Shown piece after piece: positions 7,534 to 15,564 of a stretch of DNA of 24,000 bases. The position numbers and the translations under genes are program-made. Each line of letters begins with the position of its first letter. The stretch's first letter is position 1. Source of the DNA: Selenomonas ruminantium (GTDB lineage: Bacteria; Bacillota; Negativicutes; Selenomonadales; Selenomonadaceae); the NCBI RefSeq assembly GCF_015058625.1, contig NZ_SVCA01000009.1; one strand, written 5' to 3'. A model generated the notes under the pieces. The model saw only the letters and a list, made by a program, of their open reading frames with translations. It searched no databases and was not told where the DNA came from.

Positions 7534-9963
7534 GTGGAGTTTGAACAGGGAAAAATTGTCCCCGTCAATCTGGAACACGAGATGAAGAACTGCTACATCG
7601 ACTATGCGATGAGCGTTATCGTGGCTCGTGCCCTGCCGGATGTCCGGGACGGTTTGAAGCCGGTACATCGCCGTATCCTCTACGCCATGCAGGAAGCCGG
7701 CATGGGGTCCGGCAAGCCCTACAAGAAGTCGGCGCGTATCGTCGGCGAAGTTTTGGGTAAATATCACCCCCATGGTGATAGCTCCGTTTATGATGCCATC
7801 GTCCGTATGGCGCAGGATTTCTCCATGCGCTATATGCTGGCTGACGGCCACGGCAACTTCGGTTCTGTCGATGGTGACCCGGCGGCTGCCATGCGTTATA
7901 CGGAAGTCCGTATGTCCAAGATTTCCGAGCTCATGCTGCAGGATATCGACAAGGAAACCGTGGATTTTGTGCCCAACTATGATGAGTCCTTGAAGGAACC
8001 GTCGGTACTGCCGTCAAAGTTCCCGCAGCTGCTCGTCAATGGTACTTCGGGTATCGCCGTAGGTATGGCAACCAATATCCCGCCGCACAATATGCGGGAA
8101 GTCATTGACGGCACGCTGATGCTCATTGACAATCCGGATACGACCATTGAGGAACTCATGACGGCCATCAAGGGGCCGGATTTCCCCACGGCAGGTCTTA
8201 TCCTGGGCAAAGAGGGCATTAAGCAGGCTTATATGACGGGCCGCGGCATCATCAAGATGCGCGCCAATGCCCATATCGAAACCATGAGCAACGGCAAACC
8301 TCGTATCGTGGTTACGGAACTGCCGTATCAGGTCAATAAGGCACGTCTGATTGAAAAAATCGCTCAGCTCGTGCGTGACAAGCAGATTGAGGGCATTACG
8401 GATTTGCGGGATGAGTCTGACCGCAACGGTATGCACATCGTTATTGATTTGCGCCGTGATGCCAACGCCAATGTCATCCTGAACCAGCTCTTCAAGCACA
8501 CGCAGCTGCAGGACAGCTTTGGTGTCATCATGCTGGCACTCGTGGACGGCAAGCCGCAGGTTTTGAACCTCAAGCAGGTGCTCCATTACTACATCAAGCA
8601 TCAGGAAGAGGTCATCACCCGCCGGACGCAGTACGAACTCAAAAAGGCCGAAGCCCGCGCCCATATTTTGGAAGGTTTGACGATTGCACTCGACCATCTG
8701 GATGCCGTCATTACGACCATCCGCGAGAGCCGTACGGCAGATATCGCCAAGGAAGCCCTGATGTCGGGCTTCAAGCTTTCCGATAAGCAGGCACAGGCCA
8801 TCCTCGACCTCCGTCTCCAGCGCCTGACCGGTCTGGAACGCGAAAAGATTGAGGAAGAATATCAGGAAACCTTGAAAGCTATCGAAGAATACAAGGCGAT
8901 TCTGGCGGATGAACAGAAAATCCTGAACATCATCAAGGAAGAACTCACGACGGTGAAGGAAAAGTACGGTGATGACCGCCGCACGAAACTCACCATTGAC
9001 ACTTCGGAAATCGATGTGGAAGACCTCATCGCCGAGGAAGATGTGGTCATTACCCTCACCCATAACAACTACATCAAGCGGATGCCGCTCGACACCTACC
9101 GCCGCCAAAACCGCGGCGGCAAGGGCATCAAGGGCATGGGCACGAAGGAAACGGATTTTGTGGAAAACCTGCTGATTACCACAACCCACCACACCATCCT
9201 GTTCTTTACGACCCGCGGCCGCGTCTACAGCCTCAAGGCTTACGAGATTGCCGAATCCAGCCGCACGGCCAAGGGCACGGCGATTATCAATCTGCTGCAG
9301 CTTGACCAGGGCGAAAAGATTACGGCGGTCATTCAGGTCAAGGGCTTTGACCCGGATAGATACCTCTTTATGGCTACCCGCAAAGGTATTGTGAAGAAAA
9401 CCTCTCTGTCCGAGTTTAGCAACCTGCGCAAGAACGGCCTTAACGCCATCAACCTCGATGATGATGACGACCTCATGGGCGTTAAATTCACCGATGGCGA
9501 AAGCTATCTGATGCTCGGCACGAAGCTCGGCAAGGCCATTGCCTTCTCCGAAGATGATGTGCGTGCTATGGGCCGTATGGCCCGCGGTGTCAAGGGCATT
9601 ACGCTGGCTGATGGCGATGAAGTGGTCGGCATGGATATCCTCGTGCGCAATGCCGAAGTCCTGACCGTTACGGAAGGCGGCTATGGCAAGCGCACCAGCA
9701 CCGAAGAATACCGCGCACAGACCCGCGGCGGCAAGGGCCTCATCAACATGAAGGTAACGGAAAAGACCGGTCAGGTCGTAGGCATCAAGGTGGTTCGTCC
9801 CGAACACGAACTGATGCTCATAACCACCGACGGTATCGTAATCCGCACCAACGTATCCGATATTTCCGTCATCAGCCGTAATACGCAGGGCGTAAAGCTC
9901 ATGACCACGGCAGAAAATGACAAGGTGGCTTCCATGGCTACTCTGGAGCAGAAGGAAGACTAA
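7534..9963 (+). CDS. gyrA: DNA gyrase subunit A
   Basis: The protein is 809 aa. It starts [32 protein letters not shown] and carries the QRDR-type [17 protein letters not shown] and the active-site region AAMRYTE. C-terminal beta-pinwheel repeats are present. The start is GTG with RBS GAGGTGA. Confidence 0.97.
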
Positions 9964-9964
9964 A

Positions 9965-10333
9965 ATGAAACCTATTGCGCATATAAGTAAGAAGGTTATT
10001 GATGCATTAGGTTTGGATATTACCGAAAATACACCGATATACTTAGGAAAAAGTAATATTGAACATATGAAACAGAAGCACTCCGCTGATTATGATGAGT
10101 ATGGAGATGTTATAGCTGATATTTTAAATCAGCCGGAATATGTTGGTAAAAATCCTAAGGATGATTCAATAGAGTATGTGCGTGAGTATAAGCGTGATGA
10201 TGACGAATTTGTCAAAGTAGCAGTACGAATTTCATTGAAAGGCCGGTACTATGCACGTTCGTTGTATGTATTAAGTGCTAATCGTGCGCGGAATTTCATA
10301 CGCAAAGGAACATTAAAGGATTTGACAAAGTAG
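9965..10333 (+). CDS. Small AT-rich protein resembling PBECR-type (Barnase/EndoU/ColE5/RelE-like) nuclease-fold domains
   Basis: ATG 9965 lies 1 nt after the gyrA stop, with RBS AAGGAAG. The ORF-track start at 9917 overlaps gyrA and is unlikely. The pattern IYLGKSNIEHMKQKH...ILNQPEYVG...DSIEYV...VKVAVR...YYARSLYVL matches my recollection of PBECR domains from phage and conjugative-element proteins. I have not verified this by search. Confidence 0.55.
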   Translation: MKPIAHISKKVIDALGLDITENTPIYLGKSNIEHMKQKHSADYDEYGDVIADILNQPEYVGKNPKDDSIEYVREYKRDDDEFVKVAVRISLKGRYYARSLYVLSANRARNFIRKGTLKDLTK

Positions 10334-10356: not shown

Positions 10357-10485
10357 TAAGAAGAGAAGCAGAGGACGGAACGGGCAGCCGTCGCCGGAAG
10401 GGGAAACCCTGATTAGGAGATGCGGGAATGTCACCCCGCCTATTCTCGAATTCGGATAGGAGTCGCTTAGCGGCTCCTATTTTTA
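10357..10485 (+). ncRNA. Candidate orphan structured small RNA (about 130 nt)
   Basis: A GC-rich segment contains several local hairpins (GACGG/CCGTC, GCGGG/CCCGC). It ends in a 10-bp stem (10456-10465 with 10471-10480) plus TTTT. No plus-strand gene lies downstream. Confidence 0.35.
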
Positions 10486-13483: not shown

Positions 13484-13948
13484 ATGGCAAAGGAAATTGA
13501 ACGGAAATTTTTGGTGAAAGACAGCTGGCAGCCGCAAAGTGAAGGCATAAAAATCGCTCAGGGTTATCTGTCTACGGTGCCGGAGCGTACGGTGCGGGTG
13601 CGGATAAAGGGAAATAGGGGTTATCTGACCATCAAGGGGAAGAATCAGGGCATCAGCCGGGCGGAGTTTGAATACGAAATTCCCCGGCAGGATGCAGAGG
13701 AAATGCTGCAGCTGGCCGAACAGCCCATTCTCGTCAAGACCCGCTATTTGGAACAGCAGGGAGAATTCACTTGGGAAGTGGATGTTTTCGCGGGCGAAAA
13801 TCAGGGGCTGGTAGTGGCAGAAATCGAACTGCCGGCAGAGGATGCGGAGTTTTCGCGTCCGGCCTGGCTGGGACAGGAAGTATCCGGTGATGTCCGTTAC
13901 TACAATGCAAACTTAATAAAATGCCCATTTTCCCTGTGGAAAAAGTAG
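13484..13948 (+). CDS. CYTH-domain protein (CyaB/ThTPase-like triphosphate tunnel enzyme)
   Basis: The N-terminal EIERKFLV (ExExK) signature, the later E-x-E (VAEIELP) and the size of 154 aa all fit. Confidence 0.85.
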   Translation: MAKEIERKFLVKDSWQPQSEGIKIAQGYLSTVPERTVRVRIKGNRGYLTIKGKNQGISRAEFEYEIPRQDAEEMLQLAEQPILVKTRYLEQQGEFTWEVDVFAGENQGLVVAEIELPAEDAEFSRPAWLGQEVSGDVRYYNANLIKCPFSLWKK

Positions 13949-14211
13949 GATTTTGTAACATTATGAGGAGACTTCGGGATATCCACAAGATTTATGCATA
14001 AATCTGGGGATAAAAGTACAAAATGTAGTTGATAAGCGTTTGTCAAGATGAAAATATAGGGTTATCCACGGATTTATCCACATTATCCACAGATTTTGCC
14101 TAGATGGGCATAGACAATATTCACATGATGCTTATATATTATAGAAGGAAAATGCAAAAAAACGGGGAGAAGTTCATACTTATCCACACCTGTGGATTAT
14201 TATGTGGATAA
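13935..14211. other. DnaA-box cluster (candidate oriC segment or DnaA-titrating/regulatory cluster)
   Basis: Four perfect TTATCCACA boxes lie at 14074-14082, 14083-14091, 14180-14188 (+) and 14203-14211 (-). Five one-mismatch boxes lie at 13935-13943, 13979-13987, 14005-14013, 14062-14070 and 14191-14199. An AT-rich stretch at 14126-14162 lies between the box groups. Confidence 0.75.
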
Positions 14212-14319
14212 AATGTTCCCTTCTTTGACGGGATTCACATGGACAGGCAGGATTTTTTTTGCTGAAGGCGAATTCATAAGAGAATAGGCATGATTAGTGG
14301 AAGAAAGAGGTGAGAAGTC

Positions 14320-15000
14320 ATGCTGTCGGAATGGGAGTTGTTTCTGAGGCTGGTTCTCTCCTGTATATTGGGCGGTATCATTGGTTACGAGCGGCAGTCC
14401 CGCAGAAAATCGGCGGGTCTGCGTACCAATGTGCTGGTATGTCTTGGTTCCTGCTTGATTATGGTCATGTCCATCGGCCTGTATCAGGATGTTGAGGGCA
14501 AGACCAATGCTGACCCGGCGAGACTAGCGGCACAGGTGGTCAGCGGCATTGGTTTTTTAGGTGCCGGTGCCATCATGAAGGAGGGGCTGTCCGTTACGGG
14601 CCTGACTACTGCCGCTTGCCTTTGGGTGGTGGCTGGTGTTGGCTTAGCGGTAGGTGCTGGCTTTTATACCGGGGCGCTCATTAGTACCGGTCTGGTCTTT
14701 GTGACCTTGGGCAGTTTGTCCCGTTTGGACGACTGGGTGGACCATGAGAAGAATCTTTCGCTCAATATCCATACGGTGGACAGGCCTGGGCAGCTTATGC
14801 GCATCAGCCGCTGTCTGGAGGACTTACAGCTGCGGGTCAGAGGCGTAAAGGTTAAGGCCGATGAGGACGAAATGGAAGAGGGCGGCGAGCGCTCGATGTA
14901 TATTGATTTGGAAATTTTCAACAAGCAGAGTATCAAGAGTATCATCATTGTCGATGCCGTGCGGCAGATAGACGGTGTTATCCGGGTGGATGTGGTCTAA
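14320..15000 (+). CDS. MgtC/SapB-family membrane protein
   Basis: The N-terminal LRLVLSCILGGIIGYERQSRRKSAGLRTNVLVCLGS signature, about 4-5 TM segments and an ACT-like soluble C-terminal domain are present. Confidence 0.88.
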   Translation: MLSEWELFLRLVLSCILGGIIGYERQSRRKSAGLRTNVLVCLGSCLIMVMSIGLYQDVEGKTNADPARLAAQVVSGIGFLGAGAIMKEGLSVTGLTTAACLWVVAGVGLAVGAGFYTGALISTGLVFVTLGSLSRLDDWVDHEKNLSLNIHTVDRPGQLMRISRCLEDLQLRVRGVKVKADEDEMEEGGERSMYIDLEIFNKQSIKSIIIVDAVRQIDGVIRVDVV

Positions 15001-15088: not shown

Positions 15089-15508
15089 ATGAATCCGGAA
15101 ATTGTGGATACTATGGTGCGGGCGGCTATGCAGGTCATGGATAACGCTTATGTACCTTATGGAAAGGCAGCTATTGGCGCTTGCGTGTTGGCCAGTGATG
15201 GCACCTTTTATACAGGATGTAATATCGAAAACGCCGTACCCCGGCTCTCCGTCTTTGCGGAGGAAGTGGCTATGTACCGGGCGGTAGCAGATGGCAAGCG
15301 GGAATTTGACGCCATTGCCGTGATTGCTGATACGGATGAGCCCTTTGTTCCCAATGGTGCCGTATGTCAGCTGTTGGCAGAGTTCAACGTGGAAGAAATC
15401 ATCATGACCAATATGGACGGCGTGGTGAAGACCGCGAAGCTCACCGATTTGATGCCGTATGCCAGAGCACCGCTGGATAATGCTCTGCGCCCTGCAGAAG
15501 AAGATTAA
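15089..15508 (+). CDS. Cytidine-deaminase-fold protein with degenerate zinc-binding motifs
   Basis: It aligns by eye with homotetrameric Cdd (YVPYGKAAIGACVL..DG..YTGCNIENA). However, CAE is FAE and PCGxCRQ is PNGAVCQ. Confidence 0.75.
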   Translation: MNPEIVDTMVRAAMQVMDNAYVPYGKAAIGACVLASDGTFYTGCNIENAVPRLSVFAEEVAMYRAVADGKREFDAIAVIADTDEPFVPNGAVCQLLAEFNVEEIIMTNMDGVVKTAKLTDLMPYARAPLDNALRPAEED

Positions 15509-15520
15509 AACGCTAAAGTA

Positions 15521-15564
15521 ATGCCCCCTTTCTTTCGATATATAGAGAGAAAGGGGGCATTTTT
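15521..15564 (+). terminator. Intrinsic terminator after the cdd-like gene
   Basis: A 13-bp stem, ATGCCCCCTTTCT (15521-15533) with AGAAAGGGGGCAT (15548-15560), is followed by TTTT. Confidence 0.85.

Follow-up and report, generated by a model that had tools for sequence, protein, structure and literature searches.

Introduction

In Bacillus subtilis six extra-origin clusters of DnaA boxes are known, most of them near oriC (PMC3245932; PMC4447404). These DnaA-box clusters (DBCs), described by the Ishikawa, Okumura and Grossman laboratories, are DBC[yydA-yycS], DBC[ywlC-ywlB], DBC[ywcI-vpr], DBC[yqeG-sda], DBC[thdF-jag] and DBC[gcp-ydiF]. Of the adjacent target genes sda is activated; dnaA, ywlC and yydA are repressed (PMC3245932; PMC4447404). 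Jointly the DBCs restrain initiation of replication in a way other than simple titration (PMC3245932; PMC4447404), and such clusters have been predicted to be common in Firmicutes (Okumura et al., PMC3245932). In the DnaA-reactivating sequences (DARS) of Escherichia coli an oppositely oriented pair of boxes drives release of ADP from ADP-DnaA (PMC6868365). Here we analyse a dense cluster of DnaA boxes located upstream of mgtC in a stretch of 24 kb from Selenomonas ruminantium (contig NZ_SVCA01000009.1), which is called the window throughout. The restraint of initiation by extra-origin clusters in bacteria without SeqA, Hda and datA is an unresolved problem, and the B. subtilis data are not explained by simple titration (PMC3245932).

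An earlier reading of the sequence, referred to below as the original prediction, took the cluster either for oriC or for a titration or regulatory cluster. The first half of this alternative failed on the dnaA flanks, the DnaA-trios and the GC skew. The second half is supported because the boxes 5' of mgtC are strongly conserved across genera and match the DBC class of B. subtilis. We are confident that the locus is a DnaA-binding cluster and not an origin. Furthermore, we favor the view that it probably combines two roles, as the DnaA operator region of the mgtC operon and as an origin-proximal sink for DnaA.

Results

The DnaA-box cluster upstream of mgtC

A scan of the window with the consensus TTATCCACA at up to one mismatch returned nine boxes at 13935-14211, four perfect and five with one mismatch, exactly those listed in the original prediction. 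The cluster occupies the 371-bp spacer which separates a CYTH-domain gene (13484..13948, plus strand; Pfam PF01928, E = 7e-17) from mgtC (14320-15000, plus strand). In the whole window 17 matches were counted versus 5.35 ± 2.17 expected, and all four perfect boxes of the window lie inside the cluster. The background elsewhere in the window was 0.34 boxes per kb, which yields a Poisson P of about 1e-15 for at least nine boxes in 277 bp. In 300 dinucleotide-preserving shuffles of the window the densest 277 bp contained at most three boxes. Thus the boxes of the cluster are real and their number is far beyond chance, a point on which the original prediction was borne out. With the relaxed Bacillus consensus TTATNCACA 12 boxes were counted in the cluster, the additional ones including a box at 14117-14125. 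The box groups are separated by the AT-rich stretch already noticed at 14126-14162, which has 78% A+T.

The immediately flanking genes had been thought to diverge from the cluster. This does not apply to the left side, where the CYTH-domain gene is co-directional with mgtC and reads into the cluster; only the LCP and malic enzyme genes farther left are on the minus strand.

Conservation upstream of mgtC

The comparative analysis was based on a scan with an MgtC alignment, covering one genome per species, which yielded 80 Selenomonadaceae loci. In roughly half of these, 4 to 11 boxes (2 to 7 perfect) were present within 400 bp 5' of the orthologous mgtC. Clusters were found in the S. ruminantium group, S. 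bovis, Centipeda periodontii, Mitsuokella and Schwartzia-like metagenome-assembled genomes (MAGs) as well as in the oral Selenomonas S. flueggei, S. massiliensis, FOBRC6 and oral taxon 892. In the positive loci the cluster was nearly always the densest 300 bp within ±10 kb, and 1.11 Mb of sampled DNA beyond these mgtC-upstream regions held just 13 perfect boxes. The gene accompanied by the cluster in Selenomonas, Centipeda, Mitsuokella and the Schwartzia-like MAGs is mgtC. The left neighbour varies, being either the CYTH-domain gene on the plus strand or directly the LCP gene on the minus strand. The cluster was absent from a Quinella-type clade, from MgtC paralogues and from Anaerovibrio. In the Quinella-type clade just about 30 bp separate CYTH from mgtC, a gap that leaves no room for a promoter.

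The conservation resides mainly in the boxes. Identity to the window in close relatives was 96% for the six core boxes versus 42% for the non-box intergenic columns; the corresponding values for distant genera were 76% and 32%.

Two modules recur. Module (i) consists of three co-oriented boxes, TTATCCACG-3 nt-TTATCCACA-TTATCCACA. In the window it is the tandem module TTATCCACG-gat-TTATCCACA-TTATCCACA at 14062..14091 (plus strand) with boxes starting at 14062 (one mismatch) and spanning 14074-14082 and 14083-14091 (both perfect), the final two abutting. No other element of the cluster is as well conserved as the tandem module; its identity is 90-100% among close relatives and 83-98% among distant genera, and it ranges from S. 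ruminantium to Centipeda, Mitsuokella and the Schwartzia-like MAGs. Module (ii) follows 60-130 bp downstream and has one box in forward orientation that faces boxes in reverse orientation. Its form in the S. ruminantium, S. bovis and related lineages is a 32-nt triad, TTATCCACA-NN-TGTGGATNA-NNN-TGTGGATAA. The triad of the window, TTATCCACA-cc-TGTGGATTA-tta-TGTGGATAA at 14180..14211 (plus strand), has one perfect forward box (14180-14188) facing two minus-strand boxes, the first at 14191 with one mismatch and the second at 14203-14211 perfect, at distances of 2 and 3 nt. It is located 109-140 nt 5' of the mgtC ATG and is 93-100% identical in close relatives. Both the abutting perfect pair at 14074-14091 and the facing group at 14180-14211 were thus as originally described. 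Helical phasing between the tandem module and the triad was checked as well; with spacings of 96, 104-107, 113-114 and 137 bp the register was only partial, and it was not used as evidence.

The remaining boxes lie to the left of the tandem module. The peripheral box TTTTCCACA (13935..13943, minus strand, one mismatch) overlaps the last codons of the CYTH open reading frame (ORF) and is modestly conserved, with 68% identity in close and 24% in distant relatives. The box scan also returned ATATCCACA at 13979..13987 (plus strand, one mismatch), which is perfect at the same position in several S. ruminantium relatives. The box TTATCCCCA at 14005..14013 (minus strand, one mismatch) was identified by the box scan and by comparison of the loci. 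A conservation peak at 14012-14029 covers the non-box motif ACAAAATGTAG (14019..14029, no strand assigned; family consensus ACAAAATATAG) which emerged from alignments A2 and A3. The alignments further revealed a conserved AATATAGGG motif at 14051..14061, directly left of the tandem boxes, whose minus strand reads TATATT. Both ACAAAATATAG and AATATA(T/G)GGG, the two non-box motifs inside the cluster, show conservation across genera.

The triad upstream of dnaA

The triad pattern was found in 29 of 91 loci with one copy per locus, always 5' of mgtC or dnaA and with a constant orientation relative to the gene. Upstream of dnaA it reads TTATCCACAGCTGTGGATAATCATGTGGATAA. In L007, an overlapping contig of the same species, it is located at 324-355, i.e. 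about 60-95 bp 5' of the start codon of dnaA, and between two promoter-like sites. It is kept in L092, L093 and L095 and recognisable in L094, which together with L007 makes five dnaA loci. The abutting box pair was also found in the dnaA-dnaN spacer. Because triad and abutting pair are common to both regions, the mgtC cluster can be described as built of origin-region modules, minus the unwinding part.

Two further observations concern the surroundings of dnaA. A perfect consensus promoter, TTGACA-17-TATAAT, is located on the minus strand at L007:84-112, points leftward from the dnaA-upstream box cluster and presumably drives rpmH-rnpA. On the left side of oriC small box clusters were seen at L093:1116-1211 and L095:2401-2541 (5 and 4 boxes, 2-3 perfect), 7.5-9 kb from dnaA, by a GGDEF/EAL gene and near rsmG; no such left-side cluster was found in S. 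ruminantium HD4 (L092). Origin-proximal box clusters seem to be a habit of Selenomonadaceae.

The origin at dnaA

The sequence 5' of dnaA was reached via protein search and contig look-ups. Positions in the window equal those in L007 minus 7351. The gene order 5' of the window start is dnaA-dnaN-S4-recF-dciA-remA-gyrB, with dnaA about 7 kb before the window start, in agreement with the expectation that dnaA lies several kb upstream of gyrB and outside the window. From the dnaA start to the cluster downstream of it the distance is 20.9 kb, and oriC lies about 19-21 kb to the left of the cluster. In S. ruminantium-like and S. bovis-like loci the distance between cluster and oriC was about 16-22 kb as judged by synteny markers.

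The upstream flank of dnaA has a cluster of 7 boxes, 4 perfect, at L007:143-375, and the dnaA-dnaN spacer another cluster of 7, 2 perfect, at L007:1856-2039. The end of the spacer carries two boxes, a GGCC cluster, the sequence CTACTACTACTA with four DnaA-trios (L007:2052-2063) and an unwinding element of 90% A+T. Boxes followed by a GC cluster, DnaA-trios and an AT-rich stretch constitute the textbook unwinding module of Bacillota. The module is conserved in four further Selenomonadaceae with DnaA proteins 61-88% identical. In strain HD4 the genes left of dnaA, i.e. rnpA, yidD, yidC, jag, mnmE, mnmG and rsmG, are all on the minus strand. Its GC skew is negative over the 10 kb left of dnaA and over dnaA and dnaN, and positive just past dnaN, with the cumulative minimum where dnaN ends. 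For the composite of L007 and the window the cumulative skew reaches its minimum at L007:3165 and then rises steadily through the mgtC cluster. Thus the true S. ruminantium oriC flanks dnaA.

The mgtC cluster shares with this region the density of boxes and none of the origin features examined. The skew minimum in the dnaA-dnaN region is 18-21 kb from the cluster, an outcome which the original prediction itself had named as speaking against an origin. There was no sign change of GC skew at the cluster, the skew being positive on both sides in the window, in S. ruminantium-like loci and in S. flueggei, and no origin-type change from negative to positive was seen at the cluster in the window and 17 related loci. 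A search for runs of at least three DnaA-trios (top strand 5'-[C/T]TA-3') was negative in 13800-14400, with the four trios of the dnaA-dnaN spacer as a control; likewise none of the cluster-positive loci has such a run 5' of mgtC. The comparison with the dnaA-dnaN spacer that had been proposed turned out against an origin, the spacer having boxes, four trios and a 90% A+T element and the cluster no trios. A distinctive unwinding element was also missing: the 30-bp maximum of the cluster is 83% A+T, which 22% of windows of the same size attain as well, although a test of A+T composition alone is unable to exclude local unwinding. The AT-rich stretch coincides with a conserved -10-like sequence and its composition is unexceptional; a promoter -10 region accounts for it better than an unwinding element does. 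Neither dnaA nor dnaN nor a rep gene adjoins the cluster, no parS site was found near it at up to three mismatches, and a search for tRNA genes was negative.

In Centipeda periodontii the cluster is flanked by gyrA, which points leftward, and mnmG, which points rightward. This origin-like position was considered and rejected, as mnmG is outside the rpmH-rnpA-yidC-jag-mnmE context (Pfam), gyrB is not adjacent and there is no origin-type skew switch.

Promoter-like sites and the mgtC operon

A rightward promoter-like site, TAGACA-18-TATATT, is located at 14111..14140 (plus strand) between the box modules and matches the consensus in 10 of 12 positions. From its sequence it is a candidate promoter of mgtC. 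The relaxed box ATATTCACA at 14117-14125 falls within its spacer. The -10 region GCTTATATATTATAGAAGGAAA hardly varies within the S. ruminantium clade and Mitsuokella, while the adjacent spacer diverges. If the site is used, transcription would start near 14147; the triad would then span about +32 to +63, and the tandem module would lie 20 bp 5' of the -35 element. Repression by occlusion or roadblock typically has such a geometry.

A second promoter-like site, TGGATA-16-TATATT, faces leftward at 14080..14053 (minus strand, 9 of 12 matches). Its -35 element lies inside the box at 14074-14082 and its -10 element in the AATATAGGG motif. It is found at the same offset in 27 of the 35 loci having the abutting pair.

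The gene mgtC (14320..15000, plus strand) encodes a protein of the MgtC/SapB family (Pfam PF02308, E = 4e-41) with a C-terminal ACT domain. The protein shares 100% identity with entries assigned to Selenomonas ruminantium by their sources. It is directly followed by a cytidine-deaminase-like gene (15089..15508, plus strand). The product aligns over its full length to the cytidine deaminase of B. subtilis (1JTK/1UX0), yet the three zinc-ligand cysteines are all replaced (LSVFAE vs MCNCAE; VPNGAVCQ vs SPCGACRQ), and judging by these residues it is probably catalytically inactive. The gene is probably co-transcribed with mgtC. A strong intrinsic-terminator-like hairpin with a 17-pair stem and a T-rich tail is located at 15520..15561 (plus strand). 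Together mgtC, the cytidine-deaminase-like gene and the hairpin suggest a two-gene operon. The region 5' of mgtC gave no relevant Rfam match for a riboswitch or leader RNA, either at the gathering threshold or at E up to 1; a match of the mgtC leader to a snoRNA with 18.8 bits was judged meaningless. The fold of the leader had a z-score of -1.57, i.e. no significant structure, and the leader is poorly conserved downstream of the triad.

A variant of the operon was seen in L076, L077, L079 and L080. There the mgtC match spans residues 2-151 only and the cytidine-deaminase-like gene follows about 100 bp on, which points to a shorter MgtC that lacks the ACT domain; the upstream cluster is intact with 8 boxes. 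In L076 the GC skew is negative to the left as well as to the right of the cluster.

Other features of the window

Directly after gyrA the window has an ORF for a PBECR3/PBECR2 nuclease-like protein (9917-10333), and next comes a skipping-rope RNA motif (RF02924, 51 bits) at 10364-10446. In strains of the same species the PBECR3 ORF was called in L003, L004, L006 and L007 and not in L001, L002, L005 and L008. Between gyrB and a TerC-family gene an AAA_14/DUF4143 ATPase gene and two small ORFs are located at 1195-2400. In HD4 (L092) and in L093-L095 TerC directly follows gyrB, and the segment looks like a strain-specific insertion beside the origin region.

Discussion

How might the cluster work as an operator and a sink? 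We propose that DnaA binds cooperatively to two high-affinity modules, the tandem array and the triad. These bracket the promoter-like site with a further weak box in its spacer. Transcription of mgtC would thereby depend on the amount or the state of DnaA. Given that the candidate promoter has boxes over it and 3' of it, the effect would most likely be repression. The identical triad 5' of dnaA presumably mediates autoregulation. In addition, six to nine strong sites near the origin would be duplicated early in each round of replication, so the locus should also hold DnaA off oriC as the B. subtilis DBCs do.

Several points weigh against this proposal. Proximity to the origin is demonstrable for S. 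ruminantium-like and S. bovis-like loci only, not for oral Selenomonas and Centipeda. Conservation of the rightward promoter-like site does not extend to S. bovis or to oral Selenomonas and Centipeda, where the promoter of mgtC must lie elsewhere. The most widely conserved promoter-like site faces leftward, away from mgtC, and the regulated transcript could be other than mgtC. The linkage of cluster and mgtC could also reflect plain inheritance of a neighbourhood rather than regulation. To our knowledge MgtC has no link to replication, and a search of the literature library returned no paper pairing DnaA boxes with mgtC or with Selenomonas.

The main competitor is a dedicated replication-control locus without any role in mgtC transcription, in which the adjacency of mgtC is incidental. 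Such a locus could titrate DnaA or promote the hydrolysis of DnaA-ATP in the manner of datA or DBC[yydA-yycS]; as a further possibility it could favor nucleotide exchange, as DARS do. Dense consensus boxes about 20 kb from oriC are what this explanation calls for. Clusters of this class are present in B. subtilis and have been predicted to occur commonly in Firmicutes (PMC3245932), and other Selenomonadaceae have small clusters across oriC beside unrelated genes. The triad moreover agrees with the DARS1 core in its box order and in the 3 nt that separate boxes II and III. However, the cluster follows one gene across genera and vanishes exactly where mgtC is without an upstream spacer, and a promoter-like element is embedded between the modules. 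The spacing of boxes I and II is 2 nt as opposed to 5 nt in DARS1. Both datA and DARS2 need an IHF site; the cluster has no match to the IHF consensus WATCAANNNNTTR, which leaves an IHF dependence of the datA type unsupported. Finally, control of replication and of mgtC are not mutually exclusive, and the competitor covers only the version that denies a transcriptional role. We consider that version unlikely, albeit worth serious attention.

A more specific idea is that the triad, which stands before dnaA as well as before mgtC in much of the Selenomonadaceae, could be the counterpart of the DARS core in Bacillota or Negativicutes, where opposed DnaA protomers would alter each other's nucleotide state, be it for reactivation or inactivation. 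The mgtC cluster would then be a dedicated locus of the DnaA cycle and may couple the state of the initiator to MgtC, which in Salmonella restrains the ATP synthase. We know of no DARS-like elements outside Proteobacteria, and we regard this idea as improbable.

Alternatively, the boxes might mainly control a leftward transcript, i.e. LCP in genomes without CYTH and an antisense or short RNA in the window, which would start at the promoter-like site whose -35 element and spacer are formed by the tandem boxes. The minus-strand site at 14080..14053 and its retention in 27 of 35 loci from all genera are in line with this, as is AATATA(T/G)GGG being among the best-conserved non-box sequence; in several genomes LCP on the minus strand directly abuts the cluster. 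On the other hand, in the window and in most cluster loci the co-directional CYTH-domain gene lies between cluster and LCP, so leftward transcription has no obvious target there. The -35 match TGGATA comes free with any DnaA box, which inflates the recurrence of the site, and no conserved ORF or Rfam RNA was found to the left. We hold this explanation to be very doubtful.

That the cluster is itself a chromosomal origin, a second or the real oriC, is hardly credible: its boxes are as dense as those of either oriC half or denser, its box groups are separated by a stretch of 78% A+T and the Centipeda cluster sits between gyrA and mnmG, but there is no run of at least three DnaA-trios within 600 bp in the window or any cluster-positive locus, the AT-rich stretch is unexceptional and coincides with a conserved -10, the skew has its cumulative minimum at dnaA-dnaN without an origin-type change at the cluster, no dnaA, dnaN or rep is adjacent, and the mnmG context in Centipeda is not of the origin type.

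We therefore return to the cluster as a probable DnaA operator of the mgtC operon and origin-proximal DnaA sink. The Selenomonadaceae cluster is compact, has a clear comparative footprint and consists of two fixed modules, one of them common to the dnaA promoter. The modules provide concrete sequences for mutation and for in vitro tests. DnaA control of mgtC, if true, would add a gene of magnesium and ATP homeostasis to the DnaA regulon, and a DnaA target which is conserved across genera rather than species-specific. There is also a warning for genome annotation: by box density alone the mgtC cluster would be mis-called as an origin.

Comparison with known systems

The mgtC cluster resembles a bipartite Firmicute oriC in its box density and its abutting box pair. 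Unlike oriC, it is without DnaA-trios, a distinctive unwinding element, a skew switch and adjacency to dnaA.

With DnaA-regulated promoters, i.e. those of B. subtilis dnaA, sda and ywlC and of E. coli nrdAB, mioC and uvrB, the cluster has in common boxes over and downstream of a promoter-like site. The similarity extends to the DnaA-autoregulated dnaA promoter in that the same 32-nt triad is present 5' of dnaA in Selenomonadaceae. Yet the mgtC operon is without a known link to replication, and the 6 to 9 strong boxes at mgtC exceed the needs of a simple operator.

The core of E. coli DARS1, as read from the bioD-uvrB spacer, is TTATCCACT-5 nt-TGTGGATAA-3 nt-TGTGTATTA, with boxes at 508 (plus), 522 (minus) and 534 (minus) of L091; those of the window triad are at 14180 (plus), 14191 (minus) and 14203 (minus). 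Both have three boxes in the order forward-reverse-reverse with box I opposed to II and III, a spacing of 3 nt between II and III, and a location upstream of a promoter. In contrast, the I-II spacings differ (2 vs 5 nt), the boxes of the Selenomonas triad are all near-consensus, and the organisms are phylogenetically remote. On these sequence grounds the likeness to DARS is a lead, not membership.

The closest relatives of the cluster are the B. subtilis DBCs. The differences are that mgtC, the neighbour in Selenomonas, is not a known DnaA target, that the Selenomonadaceae cluster is tied to one gene across several genera, and that its architecture is fixed as tandem plus triad with one module duplicated at the dnaA promoter. 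Like the DBCs, it is an intergenic array of many consensus boxes outside yet near oriC, adjoins a gene whose promoter-like site its boxes overlap, and belongs to a host of the Bacillota lineage with a bipartite, dnaA-flanking origin and without SeqA and Hda. Taken together, the mgtC cluster has multiple strong boxes in non-coding DNA, outside of oriC and close to the origin, and thus, as far as sequence alone can tell, the hallmarks of a DBC.

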